DNA of 64,000 bases from an uncultured Gammaproteobacteria bacterium (GTDB lineage Bacteria; Patescibacteriota; Patescibacteriia; UBA9934; GWF2-40-263): assembly GCA_964399675.1 (NCBI GenBank), contig CAYNRK010000003.1, forward strand, positions 73,033 to 137,032. Direction: 5' to 3'. Positions 26,279-57,440 of this stretch are shown here, piece by piece. Made by a program: the position numbers and the translations under genes. Position 1 is the stretch's first letter; every line of letters begins with the position of its first letter. Under the pieces are notes generated by a model. It saw nothing but the letters and a program-made list of their open reading frames with translations. It did not search any database and was not told where the DNA came from.

Positions 26279-27694
26279 TCAGTCGCGGATGTCCTTGAAG
26301 ATGGGGGTGAAGTACACCACCACAACGTACGGGGTCAGGCGGCGACCGTCGGCTTTGAAGATCACCTCATCACCTTCGCACGGGTAGTAGCGATGTCCAC
26401 CGCGTTCGTGGATGAACGTGGTGCTTCCGACCTTGACCGCCATCTGGATCTCGTCGCGGCCGATCCGGCGATTGTGGAAGGTGTCGCGCACGACCGTTCC
26501 GACCAGGAAACCGTTGTCTTCGAGTCGGCTGCGGAGCGTGTGCTCCAGGTCTGCGTGATTGAGCTTCAGACGACGCCAGGCTCGGTACACAACCATGGTG
26601 TTGGCACCGCCCAGCTTTTCGAGCACGACCTCGCGGAAGAACTTGCGAGCTTCCGGCTTGTCCATGCTGGCGCACAGGCTCAGCAGGAACGTGGCCAGGT
26701 TGTAGTGAGTCCAGTGCGAGGCCTCTCCGATCGGATCGAGCCTGAGAGCGACTGCACGCTTGGCTTCGTGCGGCAGCTCTTCGAGCACTGTCATGGGAAC
26801 CTGGCGCAGGTTGGTGAGACCCAGCGCCGCCCCTGCGATGAGCAGACCGCTTTTGACCGGCAGACGCAGTCGAAGATTACTCGCTGCCCTGAGCACCTCG
26901 TTGGGGCTCTTCTCTGCACAGATCTCGATGGCCTCAACGAGCTGATCGTTGTCCAGCATCCACCAGGGCTTGAGATCCATGTACTCGAGCCGGTCGTCGT
27001 TGTGGGCAACACCCTGACCCTCGACCTGCTCGATGAAGGCGTTGATGACCAGGTGCGGATGGGTCGCCTTGTCTGGCGAGAGCTCCGCCATGATCCTCGA
27101 CTGTGGCACACCCAGCAAACGCAGGTTGTTCCAGATTCCGCTGTTGGCCATGGAGTCGCTGCCGAGCCGCAGGAACTCGTGCACGTCGTTGGCCATGCCG
27201 CGTTTGACCTCCACCACGCGCAGGCGGTCGATGATCATCTGTGCGATCTCGTTTCGGCCGATGCCGTTCAGGATGGCCGCGACCAACCAGGCGTGGTTGC
27301 GCGCACCACAGTTGGTGTAGATCCAGCTGACCAGCTCCAAGCGACGATCGTCCCTGATCATCGACACCAGCTCGTTGCTGATGATGAAGCAGTTCAGCAG
27401 CCTGTAGCTCAGAGACCGCGCCGGATCATCTGCCGGCGCCTGCGAGTACACCTCGATGGTCTGATCGAGGAAGTCGGTCACGTCCACCATCAGAAACTCG
27501 AACATTTCCGGGTTGCGCAGGATCCAGGTCATTCCCATGGACGTGGGAATCGACCCAGCTCCAGCGTCGTCGATCGTCAGGACCCAGTTCCAGATGTCCT
27601 CGTAGGACACTCCACCTTCCTTGATCCTGGCCTCCCATGCTTCTCGGGCCAGGGGGAGCGCCTCGTAGCTTCCAATCTCTCTTCTCTCCAACAT
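26279..27694 (-). CDS. GC-rich foreign ORF C, hypothetical protein (about 471 aa from Met45 of the long ORF)
   Basis: Roughly 60% GC. On the minus strand there is a textbook promoter TTGACA-17-TATTAT and an SD ccGGAGGAcagATG. The composition is protein-like, and the plus-strand 525-aa ORF is its antisense shadow. No family recognised. Confidence 0.55.
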   Translation of the reverse strand: MLERREIGSYEALPLAREAWEARIKEGGVSYEDIWNWVLTIDDAGAGSIPTSMGMTWILRNPEMFEFLMVDVTDFLDQTIEVYSQAPADDPARSLSYRLLNCFIISNELVSMIRDDRRLELVSWIYTNCGARNHAWLVAAILNGIGRNEIAQMIIDRLRVVEVKRGMANDVHEFLRLGSDSMANSGIWNNLRLLGVPQSRIMAELSPDKATHPHLVINAFIEQVEGQGVAHNDDRLEYMDLKPWWMLDNDQLVEAIEICAEKSPNEVLRAASNLRLRLPVKSGLLIAGAALGLTNLRQVPMTVLEELPHEAKRAVALRLDPIGEASHWTHYNLATFLLSLCASMDKPEARKFFREVVLEKLGGANTMVVYRAWRRLKLNHADLEHTLRSRLEDNGFLVGTVVRDTFHNRRIGRDEIQMAVKVGSTTFIHERGGHRYYPCEGDEVIFKADGRRLTPYVVVVYFTPIFKDIRD

Positions 27695-27797
27695 CTGTCC
27701 TCCGGTCGCATAAAGCGAGTGAGGGAGCCTGGAAAATCCGTCCAGTACGGTTTTGGTGCAACTTGCACCAATCTCGGAATCGCACCGAGAACGACTA

Positions 27798-27826
27798 ATA
27801 ATAGCACAAAAATGCGGTTTTGTCAA
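27798..27826 (-). promoter_or_regulatory. sigma70-type promoter of gene C (TTGACA-N17-TATTAT)
   Basis: Minus-strand reading ttgacaaaaccgcatttttgtgctattat, with a perfect -35 and a 17 nt spacer. Confidence 0.5.
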
Positions 27827-36202: not shown

Positions 36203-37260
36203 TGTCAAAAGAAAAAAAAGATCAAATGATTTGGTGGTATGGAGCAACAGCAGCAGCTGTTGCTCTTGCATTTGTTTTTTCAGGCGCGCTACAGTCTTTT
36301 TCTATAGACCTATCAATTAATCAATCTGAGGAAATTCAATCAACACAAAATACACCTCTTTTTGAACACCCACTTAGTGGGCTTCCGATTTTTGACAAAG
36401 CTGAGCCTCCACATGTCTTTGGTGTTGTTATCGATAACCATGAGGATTCTTGGCCACAAAACGGTTTAAACAATGCGTTTTTGGTTATTGAGTCGCCTGT
36501 GGAGGCTGGGATTTCTCGTATGTTAGCGTTCTTTTCTGAAGATGCTGAAGTCGAAAAGATTGGTCCTGTGCGTTCAGCTCGTCCATACTTTCTTGATTGG
36601 AACAATGAGCTAGATGCTTTGTTTACTCATGTTGGCGGTTCAGATGCTGCTTTAGATTTGATTGCAAGTGGATCAACTTTTGATCTGAATCAATATTGGT
36701 ATGATTCCTATTTTTGGCGTTCAAATTCACGACTTGCTCCACACAATGTTTTCACTTCAACGGATTTATTAAACGAATACCTTGAGAAAAGAATAGAAAA
36801 CAAAACAGCACCAAAGCTTTTATATGGCTTGTGGTCATTTAAAAAACCTGAAGCAACTGAGGAATCCATTGGCCTTCATATTGATTTTTATCCACCTATT
36901 TATACTGTTGATTGGGAATTCGATCATGAGACAGGGAAGTATTTGCGAGATCAGTCTGGTCAACCGCATCTTCTTGAGAATGAAGAGCAGATCCAGGCTG
37001 ACAACATTGCGGTTGTAATTACAAGTGTTCAAATTATTGATTCAGTTGGACGTCGGAAGATAAAAACGATTGGAAAAGGGGATGGATATTTATTTCAAGA
37101 TGGTGGTGTAGTGGAAGTGATTTGGAAAAAGGAATCACAAGGTCAGCGCTTGCGATTCTATTCAAAAGAAAATGATAAGGAGCTTAAAATGAATCCTGGC
37201 CTCACTTGGGTTGAGGTTGTTCCAAGTAAAAATAGTATTGAAATTGTAAACAAGGATTAA
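36203..37260 (+). CDS. DUF3048-like (YerB-like) secreted protein
   Basis: The ATG at 36203 follows the rplY stop. The protein has a TM/signal segment and a PHVFGVVIDNHEDSWPQNGL block. The longer ORF starting at 36067 overlaps rplY and is rejected. Confidence 0.55.
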
Positions 37261-38165
37261 AGTTCTGCAACAACGATTCGGTCAAGACCTTGAAGGTCTT
37301 GTTTTATTTTTGGCTCTGTTTGAGGAAAGTTGTGTGCGATAAGGTTTGTGATTTTTTCTTTTTGAGTTGGATCAATTTCAAGAAGCACAGTCAGTCGCCT
37401 GGGTAATAATTTGCGATCTAAGCGCAATTGTTTGATTAGTCGAAAATAGGCGTCCAGGCCGTCTGAACCGGCCAGGAGAGCAGATTTTGGCTCATACGCA
37501 ACTTCTTTTTGTGCATACGCTACTTGTGTTTCTGTGAGATATGGAAGGTTGGCACAGAGAATCAGATGCTTAAAAGGATAGACAGATGAGACTTTTGGGT
37601 TTCCTGAAGTGTGTAGAGATCGAAAAAGATCGCTTACTGGTTGTAGTAGATCGCCTTGCCTAAAATCAATAAGTTCATGAGTGTCTAGTTGTTTGGCATT
37701 TTGTTTTGCAACAGCCAAGGCCTTTCCCTCTATGTCTGAAGCAACAACAGGAAATCCTGTTTCAATTGCTAGGGTTATTGCAATTGCACCAGAGCCTGTT
37801 CCAATATCTGCAAAAATAGTTGTGTCTTTGTTTGATTCTTTTGCAATCGCAAGTGCGTTATCAATAAGCGTTTCTGTTGCTGGTCTAGGAATTAAAACAA
37901 AAGGGTTAACCAGAAAAGATCGTTTATAAAATTCTTTTTTATTTGTTATATATGCAATTGGTTCTCGTTTAATACGTCGTTCAATTGATGTGATAAATTG
38001 TTCTTCTCGATGAGACTTAAGCTGTTCAGTAAACCGTGAAAAAAGTTTAGCCTTAGTAATATTCAAAATTGATGCAAGAAGTATTTCTGCATCAAGCATT
38101 GGTGAATCAATATCAGCCTTTCTTAGTTTGTTGTTTGCCCACTGTAAGGCTTCAAAGATAGTCAT
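37257..38165 (-). CDS. prmC: release factor glutamine N5-methyltransferase
   Basis: HemK/PrmC-like SAM methyltransferase (DIGTGSGAIAITLAIE) in a conserved partnership with prfA. Confidence 0.8.
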   Translation of the reverse strand: MTIFEALQWANNKLRKADIDSPMLDAEILLASILNITKAKLFSRFTEQLKSHREEQFITSIERRIKREPIAYITNKKEFYKRSFLVNPFVLIPRPATETLIDNALAIAKESNKDTTIFADIGTGSGAIAITLAIETGFPVVASDIEGKALAVAKQNAKQLDTHELIDFRQGDLLQPVSDLFRSLHTSGNPKVSSVYPFKHLILCANLPYLTETQVAYAQKEVAYEPKSALLAGSDGLDAYFRLIKQLRLDRKLLPRRLTVLLEIDPTQKEKITNLIAHNFPQTEPKIKQDLQGLDRIVVAEL

Positions 38166-38175
38166 TCATTTTTTT

Positions 38176-38308
38176 GTGTCATTGCGAGGAGGCCGTCAGG
38201 CCGACGAAGCCCTCGGCCGTGCCCGTCCTACGGGCGAGGCAATCCTCGTATTAATGAATACTATACTACGGAGATTGCTTCGGCCAGCTTCGCTGGCCTC
38301 GCAATGAC
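38176..38308. mobile_element. MITE-like palindromic repeat, family 2 (GTCATTGCGAGG … CCTCGCAATGAC termini)
   Basis: tgtcattgcgaggaggccgtcaggccgacgaagc...gaggcaatcctcgtat...cctcgcaatgac. Related copies are at 52347, 56178 and 57241. Confidence 0.7.
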
Positions 38309-40328
38309 GCGGGGATTTTTTTGCCAAAAAGAAAAGTAGGGCCCTCTTCGATTCGCACCGAAGGGGGCCCAGAAGGACGCCAGAGTAACAGTGGGTGACC
38401 GCCCGAAGGTGGCCACAGCTTCGCCAGTGTTAGCGTCCGAGTTGTTCCGACGCTGGAGCAAGGTGTCGCGTTCGAGCAAGGCTCGCACGGACACACAGGC
38501 TCCATGTCTCTTCTTGGCTGAGTGGTCGGTTCTTACACCTACCTCTCTTGATGATCGGTTGCTTCTTGTGGTCCGTGGGAGGACCTTGCAGGAACTTTCG
38601 CCGTGAAGCTAGGTTCCACATCCAATCTCCAACTGTCTCGAAGACCTTCTGTATCATCCCCGAAGGAATGACCTTACTTTTTCTCATGTCTGGCCCGAAG
38701 ACCAAGTTAGCTTTCCCCCGAAGAGTACTTGCATCATGATACTTTTTCAGTACAGCCGAAGCTGCATCAGAAGAGGAACGACAACGATTTTCGACCGTTA
38801 TTTATTATCCCTTTGTTTCCTTGGGGATCTTTCGTTGGTTACTCGCTGTGCAACCTTTACGAAAGTGGTCTATCCATTGCTGGATTTCGTTACCTTTTGG
38901 AAGCTCTTTTGGTCGAAACCTCTGGAACTCCCTCACCTTACTTTGGCCGAAGCCGTTTCTGGTTTTTTAGCTCCCCATGCCTGGGTTGCTCAGATCTTTC
39001 GACCTGTTGAGTAATCTGTGACTGATTGATGGATCAGCCATTACTCTTAACGATTTTCAACCGCTATTTATTATCCCGTTGTTTCCATTGGGATCTTTCG
39101 TGGTTATGTCGAGCAAGCTCTAGTAACCTTACGAAAGTTGGTTTATCCTTCGTTTGATTGCTCAAACGTTAGGATTCTCGTTACTTTTTTGGTTGCCCTT
39201 TGGTCTCCCTCTAGGCTTCCTCACCATTTCAGCCGAAGCTTACTTTGGATTTTTGGTCCACATTTGACTACCCGGAGGTCTTCAATTGCTTTCCAAGGTG
39301 TTTCCACCTTTGATCAACACTGGTGTTGGTTTTTAATCAACACCCATCCTGCTTTCCCACAGCTTGTTTCCTGCAAGTCTTTGCTTCCTGTGCCCAGGTA
39401 AGCTTGACTTACTTGTTTCTTGGCTGCTTTCTACAGAATGACTCTGCTTTGGGTGTGGCTTTTGTTTTCCCGCTCGTTTTCTCCGCGTTTCCTTGGAGAC
39501 TCGGTTGCTTGTTTTCCATTTCCGCACTTTGGCAGAGTTTTTGGATCGGTTTACCCGTTCCTTTTTGTTTGCATTAAGGCCTTCCCCGCTATTCCCACCG
39601 AAGTGGTTTTCATCACGGAATCGTTTCATCAGGATTGCTCCCGAATCACTGCCTTTCATGCAATGTATTCCTTGTAGTCCTTTGTTTCCCGTCCGGTTAC
39701 CCCTCTGTCTCCAGTGAGGTTCGTTACTTGTTTCCACTTAGAACTACTTGGTTTTTTGGACCGGTTTACCCGCTCCTCTTCGTTTCCTTCGGATTGTATT
39801 CCCGAGCTTATTTCCGCAACACACGTGCTGTGGCTTTGGGCTCTTGTATTCTCTCCGTGTACTTACGAAGACGTGCTGATCTGGTCTGACCAGGCTCCCA
39901 GGGCAGTTGATTACTCTGTCGGCCTTGTCGCACGTGATGTCCAGATTAAACTAAGAAGTATTTCCTGTCAAGCCCCCCGGAATGACTAGTTTTTGATAAA
40001 AGACGTTGGTTATCCACAGAGGTGAGGATGGGATTGGTGGATAAGCATGGATGTTACCGGGAAGGACTGTCCCGGTAACACCTAAATTTTTGGAAAAGAA
40101 AGCGGATCCAGTCTTGGATCCGAGAAGAAGGGTGTTGGTGAAGGCGACAAGGAAGAGGTGCCGCGGTGTTGCGGGCTCTTGTTTCACTGCCCCAGGCCAG
40201 CAGGGCAGTTGTCGTTCGGAGGTAGAAGTCGTGGGGCGGCACCTCTTCCCGTCGCACCTCACCGCGACCAGCACCATGGGTGGTGGTGGTCAGATACGCC
40301 TTGAAGATACCGTTTTTCCCCGTTTTTG
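38309..40328 (-). other. 2.0 kb ORF-less, strand-biased insertion between prfA and prmC (candidate large structured ncRNA or tandem sRNA array)
   Basis: No protein-like ORF is present on either strand. The operon (minus) strand is purine-rich, with many gaaa, cgaaag and cttcgg motifs. There are roughly 266 bp tandem units at 38785 and 39051 and repeated cggtttacccg motifs. Confidence 0.4.
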
Positions 40329-41459
40329 TCAACCCTGCTCAACCTCAAGAAGTTGTTTCACCTCTTCTTCTTTCAATGCATTGATTATGTTGTCGATTGC
40401 GCCATCCATAATTTCAGGGATGTCGTGGAAGTTTGTTTTTATTCTGTGGTCTGTTACGCGATCTTGCGAAAAGTTATATGTACGGATTTTTTCTGAACGA
40501 TCACCGGTTCCGATTTGAACGCGACGTTTATCTTCACGTTCTTTGCGTGCTTTCTCTTGCTCATGCGCAAAAACACGTGCTCGTATGATCGAAAGCGCAC
40601 GTTCTTTATTTTGTTTTTGCGATCGTTCTTCTTGGCAGTAAACCATCATGCCAGTTGGAATGTGTGTGATTCTAACTGCAGAGTAGGTTGTATTTACGCT
40701 TTGACCACCAGCTCCGGTTGAAGTCGTTGCTTCAATCTTCAGGTCCTTTGGGTCGATTTTAATGTCTACTTCCTCAGCCTCTGGCATGATTGCAATTGTT
40801 ACGGTTGATGTGTGAACACGTCCTTGTTTTTCTGTTTCAGGCACGCGCTGAACACGATGCACCCCGCTTTCGTATTTTAGTTTTGCGTAAACCCCGGTTC
40901 CTTTTATTGAAAAAATGACTTCTTTAAAACCACCAAGATCGTTCCGATTGGCTGAAATTAGCTCTGTTTTGAAGTTATTGCGTTCGGCAAAGCGTGTGTA
41001 AAGCCGCATCATTTCAGCTGCAAACAAAGACGACTCATCACCGCCCGCTCCAGCGCGAATTTCAACAATGATTCCTTTTTTGTCCATTGGGTCTTGTGGA
41101 AGCAGGGCAACAAGTAGATTTTTTTCTAGTTCTGGAAGTTTGGTCTCAAGTTCTACAATTTCTTCTTTGGCAAGTGCTTTCAGGTCTGCGTCATCATCTT
41201 GGGCTAAGGCAAGCTTTGCGTTTTCAAGATTTTTTTTAGCTTGTTCATAAGCTGCGCCCACATCAACAATTTCTTTTATGTGCGCGTATGCTTCATTTAC
41301 TTTTCGGATTTTTTGCGGATCAGAAAGCACCTCGCTGTCTGTGAGTTTTGTTTCAAGACTTTTCAGTTCTTGTTTTTTATTTTGAACTTGTTCGAGTAGA
41401 TTCATATTTTTTTGGAAATTAAAAACGTCCTTCAACAGAAAGACGTTTTTGTTCAACAT
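40329..41459 (-). CDS. prfA: peptide chain release factor 1
   Basis: GGQ motif (GAGGQSVNTTYSAVRITHIPTG) and a PxT-type RF1 region. Confidence 0.92.
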   Translation of the reverse strand: MLNKNVFLLKDVFNFQKNMNLLEQVQNKKQELKSLETKLTDSEVLSDPQKIRKVNEAYAHIKEIVDVGAAYEQAKKNLENAKLALAQDDDADLKALAKEEIVELETKLPELEKNLLVALLPQDPMDKKGIIVEIRAGAGGDESSLFAAEMMRLYTRFAERNNFKTELISANRNDLGGFKEVIFSIKGTGVYAKLKYESGVHRVQRVPETEKQGRVHTSTVTIAIMPEAEEVDIKIDPKDLKIEATTSTGAGGQSVNTTYSAVRITHIPTGMMVYCQEERSQKQNKERALSIIRARVFAHEQEKARKEREDKRRVQIGTGDRSEKIRTYNFSQDRVTDHRIKTNFHDIPEIMDGAIDNIINALKEEEVKQLLEVEQG

Positions 41460-52324: not shown

Positions 52325-52346
52325 ATTTCGAGGTGTAATACCTTTC

Positions 52347-52437
52347 GTGTCATTGCGAGAAGGCTCGTCAGACGAGCCGACGAAGCAATCCTCGTATACG
52401 AAGATTGCTTCGCCCACTTCGTTCGCTCGCAATGACA
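52347..52437. mobile_element. MITE-like palindromic repeat, family 2
   Basis: tgtcattgcgagaaggctcgtcagacgagccgacgaagcaatcctcgtatacgaagattgcttcgcc...cgcaatgaca. Confidence 0.7.
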
Positions 52438-56177: not shown

Positions 56178-56340
56178 GGTCATTGCTTTTCTTCCCGCGT
56201 CACTGCTCTCCCCCTGCGTCGTTGCGAGCGAAGCGAAGCAATCTCCGTAAAGAACTATGGGGGACAGTCACGTTGTATATAATTTCGGCAGTACTCGCGT
56301 GGCTCCGTGCTGGCGAAATTATATACAACGTACCTGTTGT
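56178..56340. mobile_element. composite palindromic repeat, family 2' (homologous to 57241-57440)
   Basis: cgttgcgagcgaagcgaagcaatctccgtaaagaa...acgttgtatataatttcggcag...cgaaattatatacaacgt. About 160 bp are shared with the 57.3 kb copy. Confidence 0.65.
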
Positions 56341-57240: not shown

Positions 57241-57440
57241 CGCCTTTCACCCTGTGTCATTGCGAGGCCTGAAAGGCCGAAGCAATCCTCGTATCATCAC
57301 CCTGCGTCGTTGCGAGGAGGCCCGTCAGACGGGCCGACGAAGCAATCTCCGTAAAGAATTTTGGATGACAGTCACGTTGTATAATTTCGGCAGACTCGCT
57401 TCGCTCGTGCTGGCGAAATTATCCAACGTACCTGTTAATG
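57241..57440. mobile_element. composite palindromic repeat, family 2 plus 2'
   Basis: tgtcattgcgaggcctgaaaggccgaagcaatcctcgtat then cgttgcgaggaggcccgtcagacgggccgacgaagcaatctccgtaaagaa...cgttgtataatttcggcag...cgaaattatccaacgt. Confidence 0.65.

Follow-up and report, generated by a model that had tools for sequence, protein, structure and literature searches.

A probable 1.6-kb structured noncoding RNA gene between prfA and prmC in a Candidatus Uhrbacteria genome

What occupies the interval between prfA, encoding release factor 1, and prmC, encoding the release factor glutamine-N5 methyltransferase, in the 64-kb stretch of DNA analyzed here (64,000 nucleotides of contig CAYNRK010000003.1, hereafter the window)? 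Both genes lie on the minus strand, and the 2,163 bp between them (38166-40328) hold mechanically called open reading frames (ORFs) of 134 to 155 amino acids at most. An earlier sequence-only reading had described about 2 kb without protein-like ORFs, an insertion that split the gene pair, and had proposed either a large structured noncoding RNA or a tandem array of small RNA genes. The size of the gap and its lack of protein-like ORFs were borne out, but the idea of one insertion in this genome was not: five elements make up the 2 kb, and an ORF-less gap at this position is common to related Uhrbacteria. We consider it probable that the minus strand of 38326-39936 is a free-standing gene for a structured noncoding RNA of ~1.6 kb that is fast evolving and restricted to a subclade of Uhrbacteria. 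We favor this reading because of the strand-specific folding of the region, its tetraloops, its promoter and terminator, the same layout in nine further lineages, compensatory changes among those relatives, and the absence of coding periodicity.

The window comes from a Candidatus Uhrbacteria genome (candidate phyla radiation [CPR], Patescibacteria). All named homologues of its PrmC are from Uhrbacteria or Parcubacteria, the nearest homologue is 59% identical, and the best named ones are from Candidatus Uhrbacteria. The gap lies within a cluster of translation genes, in the order rpmE-prfA-RNA-prmC, and is richer in GC than the genome and its surroundings. Seven loci in ENA, JGI, and Logan matched the full 2,301-bp query at 100% identity, as did shorter contigs from different samples over the parts they covered. 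With the same sequence in no fewer than seven independent assemblies, the gap is not a misassembly, an outcome that the sequence-only reading had named as one that would refute it. Public assemblies break at an internal duplication within the region (38783-39316).

Folded at full length, the minus strand of the RNA body had a minimum free energy (MFE) of -554.8 kcal/mol, compared with -452+-10 kcal/mol for dinucleotide shuffles (z score, -10.2), whereas the antisense strand had a z score of -5.6. In 300-nt windows across 38300-39950, minus-strand z scores ranged from -2.3 to -6.6, most of them well below the plus-strand value; windows in the flanking coding sequences mostly scored -0.2 to -2, with one at -3.2. 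The MFE structure contains 36 hairpins, mostly short helices capped by UUCG or GNRA tetraloops with A-rich linkers between them, and for 82% of the nucleotides the ensemble clearly defines whether they are paired or unpaired. The two ends of the body are predicted to be brought together by a closing helix, in which 13 of the 14 pairs have probabilities of 0.88-0.97 and the terminal pair has a probability of 0.65.

CUUCGG occurs nine times in the body, compared with 0.28+-0.51 in dinucleotide shuffles (0 of 1,000 reached this count), giving a density ~35 times that in the remainder of the window, and G(GNRA)C occurs 13 times, compared with 5.7+-2.3 (1 of 1,000). The antisense strand has one, two, and two copies of CUUCGG, G(GNRA)C, and C(GNRA)G, respectively. 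The dense UUCG-like and GNRA-like motifs noted from the sequence alone are thus real for the first two patterns, but C(GNRA)G in the body showed no significant excess over the shuffles. The purine bias ascribed to the operon strand exists but is mainly an excess of A over U (A, 34%; G, 26%; C, 22%; U, 17.5%).

Two sets of repeats within the body, both anticipated by the sequence-only reading, look like internal duplications of RNA modules. When the two ~266-nt tandem units were compared, only their 3' halves aligned, and the base changes in them were mostly one-sided. The other set, recognized earlier as blocks containing cggtttacccg, is a GGA(N)CGGGUAAACCG(N)UCC module that is present twice, and in the MFE structure both copies fold to the same hairpin. 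Elsewhere in the window the body has no other copy, and no phage or plasmid similarity was found for it, so that we rejected an origin of the body from either source.

We took as relatives those contigs that encode PrmC homologues 51-59% identical to that of the window. In nine further lineages, an ORF-less stretch of 787-1431 bp lies immediately upstream of prmC and follows either prfA or a nucleoside triphosphate (NTP)-transferase gene located after prfA; in the gene table of a tenth lineage (P0002), a similar gap of ~700 bp is apparent. All nine lineages share the same order of elements, namely, one or two DnaA boxes, a TTGAC(A/G)-N17-TAnnnT promoter, an A-rich, hairpin-rich body of 0.6-1.1 kb, and a GC hairpin followed by a U-run. 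The relatives' bodies folded with sense z scores of -4.8 to -10.8, and in every one the sense strand folded better than the antisense strand. The excess of UUCG and GNRA motifs was absent or reversed in one relative (L129) and marginal in two others (L127 and L128). Across 10 RNAs, the most strongly enriched hexamers, apart from the TTTTTT of the terminators and the CUUCGG-overlapping TCTTCG, were CUUCGG (16-fold), CGCAAG (7-fold), and CGAAAG (5-fold), all of which are classic stable tetraloop hairpins.

For this group of loci we use the provisional name Uhrbacteria prfA-prmC RNA, defined in this analysis by its position (an ORF-less region, 0.6 kb or longer, that shares its strand with prmC and lies between that gene and prfA or the NTP-transferase gene, directly before prmC), by its promoter (one or more DnaA boxes no more than 75 nt upstream of a TTGAC(A/G)-N17 promoter reading toward prmC), by its fold and motifs, and by its terminator. 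The window has the position, the boxes with their promoter, the fold and motifs, and the terminator of this group. Duplication of modules recurs within it as well: the RNA of one relative (L101:3939-4976) carries a tandem duplication of its own, of a ~95-nt module (GGATACCACTCAACATCACGACA...), that is independent of those in the window. A scan of metagenome contigs for a DnaA box, TCAAAAAC, and TTGAC in succession returned 23 loci, of which only three (L117, L120, and L122) are real relatives, the rest being chance matches or unrelated promoters.

The distribution of the element has a boundary. One relative, which encodes P0120 (JGI 3300072015, a 686-kb contig; PrmC 51% identical), retains the synteny rpmE, prfA, NTP-transferase gene, prmC, DUF3048, rplY, and ftsW but has only 39 bp before prmC and lacks the RNA gene, from which we conclude that the element is confined to a subclade. 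As a control, we examined unrelated bacteria in which prmC follows prfA, using a prfA search of genome contigs; the matches listed were Firmicutes and Deltaproteobacteria at ~50% identity, with no Uhrbacteria among them. In 18 of these 21 loci the estimated gap was 24-233 bp; the remaining three had gaps of 307-1014 bp.

The two DnaA boxes that the sequence-only reading had placed at the prfA-proximal end are present as TTATCCACA at 40010-40018 (plus strand) and TTATCCACC at 40036-40044 (minus strand), the former being a perfect TTATCCACA match, of which the 64 kb contains only two. The proximal box begins 47 nt upstream of the start of the -35 hexamer, and this offset is identical in five relatives (L095, L097, L103, L117, and L120), with five relatives also sharing the TCAAAAAC tract. 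In 11 of 11 related loci, at least one box with 0-1 mismatch falls within the 75 nt that precede the -35 hexamer; outside this interval, the gaps yielded a single box. The window promoter matches the TTGACA-N17-TAAATT promoter of the relatives column for column, in an alignment that spans from the boxes to ~+27 of the RNA. From the position of the -10 hexamer, transcription would start at ~39936, ~7 nt past TAATCT. The A/T tract that contains TCAAAAAC, between the box and the -35 hexamer, resembles an UP element and may be one. The boxes thus appear to be a conserved part of the RNA promoter and not incidental, and their presence at a fixed distance from it suggests that DnaA, or another factor that recognizes TTATCCAC, gates transcription of the RNA.

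Promoters regulated by DnaA, such as those of dnaA and nrdAB in Escherichia coli and sda in Bacillus subtilis, likewise have a consensus TTATCCACA beside a sigma-70-type promoter. Here, however, the product would be a large noncoding RNA, and the palindromic arrangement of the boxes could equally suit a dimeric repressor. The literature searches yielded no precedent for a noncoding RNA controlled by DnaA boxes. One CPR-like contig from the pattern scan (L125:1736-2200) has GTGGATAA, the A-tract TCAAAAAC, and TTGAC arranged as in the window, upstream of what looks like an NrdR-box palindrome and of a 704-amino-acid ORF whose beginning resembles the ATP-cone of a ribonucleotide reductase, a context that would be consistent with the motif being a type of DnaA-controlled promoter.

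Comparisons within subclades suggested that the structure is under selection. For the three sequences of clade A (L097, L103, and L117), the RNAalifold consensus has 301 pairs, with 96% of cells paired. Both sides had changed in 21 of the pairs, compared with 11.2+-2.4 in shuffles (0 of 500) and with 1-7 when the partners were slid by 1-3 columns. Whole hairpins and a ~180-nt domain are present or absent among these three sequences. In clade C (L099 and L128), 12 of 162 pairs had changed on both sides, compared with 0-1 in the slid controls. RNA identity within clade pairs was 0.73-0.74, whereas the third codon positions of the neighboring prmC were 0.52-0.56 identical.

Several observations weigh against the RNA-gene reading. 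The covariation counts come from alignments of two to three sequences, with the structures predicted from those same alignments, and the closest PrmC is only 59% identical, so covariation is not measurable on the window's own sequence. Constraint is patchy: the two members of clade B (L095 and L101) have PrmC proteins that are 89% identical, whereas their RNAs align at only 46%, and the MAFFT/RNAalifold alignment of this clade was too poor for use. Neither blastn at word size 7 nor shared 7- to 9-mers linked the window body to its relatives or the subclades to one another. Profile searches with nhmmer (clades A and C) and a covariance model (R1) built from the 5' domain of clade A and run with filters off likewise produced no significant match, either in the window or between subclades. 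What the window shares with the relatives' RNAs is only the first ~27 nt, which align, so that homology of its body would rest on synteny and on the alignment of the promoter and 5' end, not on a shared core; its orientation and overall character also tie it to the family. A search of the relatives' RNAs for the closing helix did not find it. The relative without the gap implies that the RNA is either dispensable or a recent gain. The RNA's stability, like its start site and its terminator, is predicted.

The region does not belong to a described RNA family. Rfam 15 gave no match in the whole window at gathering thresholds, and Rfam at those thresholds together with ARAGORN found zero tRNA, rRNA, or other known RNA in the 64 kb. 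Within 37900-40600, Rfam returned only three chance matches (E>7) to unrelated small RNAs, and it returned no match in six related loci. The comparison with GOLLD, ROOL, OLE, HEARO, raiA, and group II introns that the sequence-only reading had suggested was thus negative. We rejected membership in OLE, GOLLD, ROOL, HEARO, and raiA, whose covariance models were unmatched in the window, in 37900-40600, and in the six related loci. A group II intron was rejected as well, since there was no Rfam intron match at E<=10 and no ORF with a Pfam domain, and the region is intergenic. The same applies to RNase P RNA, transfer-messenger RNA (tmRNA), signal recognition particle (SRP) RNA, and 6S RNA, which were unmatched in Rfam, and to a tmRNA or tRNA reading more generally, since ARAGORN found none in the window or in nine relatives. 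Literature searches on noncoding RNAs of CPR bacteria or Uhrbacteria gave nothing relevant, and they revealed no comparable large RNA in CPR or Patescibacteria.

We weighed the large structured RNA against other explanations, each of which explains fewer of the observations. That the gap is a decayed or recoded protein-coding gene is hardly credible. The mechanical ORFs of up to 134-155 amino acids might be taken as its remnants, but they had no Pfam match at E<=0.1. TAA, TAG, and TGA are all present in all six frames of the window and its relatives, so that no single stop-codon reassignment opens a frame, and 3-nt periodicity was absent from the relatives' substitutions, both overall and in every 180-nt window. 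We therefore rejected a protein-coding gene or pseudogene, the outcome that the sequence-only reading had held would overturn it. A tandem array of several small RNA genes, the other half of its proposal, would account for the 266-nt and 215-nt internal repeats and for the hairpin-after-hairpin architecture. On the minus strand, however, we found only a single terminator and a single promoter-like site whose context is conserved, and a terminator scan of that strand found none inside 38326-39936, so we read the region as one unit and not an array. The repeats, moreover, are two diverged and irregular copies (Tandem Repeats Finder reported nothing longer than 23 nt), and the ends are joined by a closing helix predicted with high probability; we regard an array as very improbable. 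Just as improbable is a DNA-level DnaA element, an origin or a DnaA-titrating or reactivating site at which transcription is incidental. Perfect or near-perfect boxes do occur at the locus in every lineage, but there are only one or two of them, always at a fixed distance from the promoter, and boxes are not enriched in the window (18 compared with 16 expected). The cumulative GC skew has no inflection near the locus, showing only small dips at 22-24 and 27-32 kb; dnaA and dnaN were not found among the ORFs scanned; and the region has no AT-rich unwinding element, being GC-richer than the genome. An oriC was accordingly rejected, given the two boxes only, the lack of a GC-skew inflection, and the higher GC content than in the surroundings.

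Two further explanations are unlikely, to about the same degree, but less so than the preceding three. According to one, the region is a giant cis-acting leader of prmC, in which the promoter yields one transcript, a structured domain senses a signal, and the terminator before prmC serves as an attenuator that sets the expression of prmC. The RNA is indeed co-oriented with prmC, the U-run of the relatives' terminators ends ~20-85 nt before the prmC start as read from sequence, and in the window the stretch from the terminator to the prmC start codon revealed no convincing promoter for prmC itself. At 600-1600 nt, however, such a leader would be several times the length of any leader or riboswitch that is generally known, and both its length and its sequence vary enormously among relatives with near-identical PrmC proteins. 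In several of the relatives, motifs resembling an extended -10 (TGnTATACT or TGnTAATAT) can be read by eye after the U-run and before prmC; in the window a miniature inverted-repeat transposable element (MITE) sits between the terminator and prmC; and in the relative that lacks the region, prmC follows the preceding gene after 39 nt. The other explanation makes the region a nonfunctional spacer, a hot spot for MITEs, duplications, and decayed mobile DNA in which the hairpins are relics. It would fit the MITE-like elements that flank the region in either orientation in the window and its relatives, the internal tandem duplications, the length range of 0.6-1.6 kb, the subclades that cannot be aligned with one another, and the relative without the region. 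It does not fit a promoter, DnaA box, and terminator conserved over 10 lineages, the strand-limited enrichment of CUUCGG, CGCAAG, and CGAAAG, compensatory changes in excess, the sequence identity above the level of third codon positions, or a body that has no other copy in the window, in phages, or in plasmids. Thus, a large structured RNA accounts for more of these observations, and the best-supported reading of the window copy is that of a local version of the RNA expanded to ~1.6 kb by internal duplications and flanked by MITE-like insertions. The genomes of CPR bacteria are tiny and have little room for 1-2 kb of noncoding DNA, so that its retention argues for function.

Coordinates of the RNA, its signals, and the neighboring features in the window (a period marks features without a strand)
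Feature	Position	Strand	Evidence and remarks
prfA (release factor 1), upstream neighbor	40329-41459	-	376-aa ORF; an identical public gene call has Pfam PCRF and RF-1
GC-rich long imperfect hairpin, directly 3' of prfA	40137-40263	-	~33 predicted pairs; 14-nt perfect inverted-repeat core
prfA intrinsic terminator	40093-40122 (stem 40103-40122)	-	terminator scan; 8-bp GC stem, then U-run; free energy -12.4 kcal/mol, z -3.7
13-bp perfect hairpin between prfA terminator and DnaA boxes	40052-40080	.	free energy -21.5 kcal/mol, z -5.3; T-run follows on plus strand
Putative operator of the RNA promoter: two inverted DnaA-box 9-mers	40010-40044	.	operon strand reads TTATCCACC ... TGTGGATAA
TCAAAAAC in A/T tract between box and -35	39989-39996	-	same position in the window, L095, L097, L103, and L117
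Sigma-70-type promoter	39943-39971	-	TTGACA 39966-39971, 17-nt spacer, TAATCT 39943-39948
Body of predicted ~1.6-kb structured noncoding RNA	38326-39936	-	folding, tetraloops, no family match
Closing helix, 5' arm	39911-39926	-	14 of 16 positions pair with 38373-38388 over ~1.5 kb; in the MFE structure
GGA(N)CGGGUAAACCG(N)UCC hairpin module, two copies 215 nt apart	39538-39785	-	blocks 39538-39570 and 39753-39785, 88% identical
Internal tandem duplication of ~266-nt RNA module, two diverged copies	38783-39316	-	53 nt at 91% and 113 nt at 78% identity
Closing helix, 3' arm	38373-38388	-	immediately 5' of terminator
RNA intrinsic terminator	38326-38370	-	hairpin 38339-38370, U-run 38326-38338; free energy -24.1 kcal/mol, z -3.4; then UACUUUUCUUUUU
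MITE between RNA terminator and prmC	38176-38310 (135 bp)	.	terminal inverted repeats GTGTCATTGCGAGG / CCTCGCAATGAC
prmC (release factor glutamine-N5 methyltransferase), downstream neighbor	37257-38165	-	302-aa ORF; Pfam PrmC_N

The remaining features of the gap lie on either side of the RNA. The sequence-only reading had allowed for cotranscription of the element with the operon, as an alternative to insertion into it; because prfA has its own terminator, with its stem at 40103-40122, this is probably not the case. The GC-rich hairpin directly downstream of prfA (-65.7 kcal/mol; z score, -4.9; a single copy within the window) lies outside the large RNA and is either a structured 3' untranslated region of prfA or a MITE-like insertion. 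It could instead belong to a separate small RNA of ~200 nt; a promoter-like TTGACA-N17-TATCTT (40304-40332) overlaps the prfA stop codon. At the corresponding spot the relatives have other MITE-like elements, in either orientation. Between prfA and the DnaA boxes, two of them carry a ~170-nt element that is bounded by inverted repeats (GAGCGGT...ACCGCTC) and lies in opposite orientations (L103:969-1185 and, reverse-complemented, L120), and L097 also carries an end of this element. The prfA-proximal side of the locus is thus a landing site for MITEs. On the prmC side, the MITE reported from the sequence alone was confirmed, with terminal inverted repeats and with related copies elsewhere in the window (52343-52436, 57250-57343, and 56212-56249).

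Public gene calls of 155 amino acids (L001:10942-11409, corresponding to ~40051-40518 on the plus strand of the window) and 108 amino acids (L002:11801-12127, corresponding to 39951-40277 on the minus strand) overlie the 3' end of prfA, the GC-rich hairpin, and the DnaA-box and promoter region. Neither has a Pfam match, and both look spurious. Such annotations of 108-155 amino acids over the locus should give way to an RNA feature. Elsewhere in the window, a 515-amino-acid ORF without a Pfam match (26279-27826, minus strand) follows rplA directly, at the place expected for rplJ and rplL, in a segment (26-28 kb) of ~54.5% GC, compared with ~40% for the genome. It has its own TTGACA...TATTAT promoter and a hairpin terminator, and it resembles a foreign GC-rich gene; a 525-amino-acid ORF mirrors it on the opposite strand, as is common in GC-rich coding sequence. 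One of the relatives, L101, carries a gyrB with an intein (L101:10231-10915; Pfam Intein_splicing, 922-amino-acid product), unlike the gyrB of the window's genome.

How would such an RNA compare with those already described? OLE RNA is stable and is thought to act as a scaffold for RNA and protein, not by base pairing with targets. Like OLE (RF01071; ~610 nt, in extremophilic Firmicutes), the RNA of the window would be large, rich in helices, and restricted to one lineage, and it lies in the same orientation inside a housekeeping cluster. It differs in being unmatched by the OLE model, in having no oapA-like neighbor, and in being up to 2.6 times longer; moreover, OLE has a well-conserved sequence core, whereas none is detectable between subclades here. 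GOLLD and ROOL are typically found in prophages or near tRNAs. With GOLLD (RF01998) and ROOL (RF03087) it shares very large size and an ornate structure with many tetraloop-capped helices, but it is chromosomal, at a fixed syntenic site, without a match to either model, and without phage or plasmid similarity. The yeast telomerase RNA TLC1 varies extremely in length and sequence among fairly close relatives, its helices being kept while arms are gained and lost. The RNA described here shows the same evolutionary pattern as telomerase RNA, especially TLC1, although the analogy is functional only, telomerase RNA being eukaryotic and of unrelated function, and no homology is implied. Finally, the CsrB and RsmZ sponge RNAs are also multihairpin RNAs with a recurring loop motif, and the window RNA contains GGAAAC eight times. 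It would, however, be four to five times longer than these. We read its GGAAAC as a G(GAAA)C tetraloop, and the relatives show no enrichment of this motif, so that a CsrA sponge is not supported.

Cryo-electron microscopy of OLE, ROOL, and GOLLD assemblies, which include OLE oligomers and RNA-only homo-oligomers of GOLLD and ROOL, has revealed the unusual biology of large RNAs (PMC12286853). By analogy with these three, our guess is that the RNA would be abundant and stable and might act as a flexible scaffold, either for proteins or for self-assembly. Such a role would fit the retention of helices while sequence, length, and hairpins turn over, the duplication of modules, and the site within a translation gene cluster. 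The transcript would run in the direction of the flanking genes, prfA transcription ending at its own terminator. RNA polymerase would start ~7 nt past TTGACA-N17-TAATCT, with the A/T tract ahead of the promoter, and the one or two upstream DnaA boxes may gate this promoter and so couple RNA output to the status of DnaA. The RNA is predicted to fold into ~36 tetraloop-capped helices, to be closed by the 16-nt 5'-3' helix, and to end at the strong intrinsic terminator.

Taken together, these results suggest a new family within a known category, the large structured RNAs of bacteria, with a DnaA-box promoter and extreme plasticity in size as its unusual traits. To our knowledge, only about a dozen classes of large (>400 nt) structured bacterial noncoding RNA have been found, each of them biologically unusual, and GOLLD is the largest catalogued bacterial RNA that is neither ribosomal nor an intron. 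If its expression and a conserved core are confirmed, the RNA would be a new class, and the window copy, at ~2 times the length of GOLLD, would be among the largest nonribosomal structured RNAs of bacteria. A conserved DnaA box on the promoter of an RNA gene would connect replication control with RNA-based function in a new way. We therefore tentatively propose, with somewhat less than even confidence, an undescribed class of 0.6- to 1.6-kb RNAs in this subclade of Uhrbacteria, whose regulatory repertoires are minimal, gated by DnaA boxes within the rpmE-prfA-prmC cluster, that may link the state of replication initiation to translation or envelope function as a rapidly evolving scaffold of RNA and protein or of RNA only.

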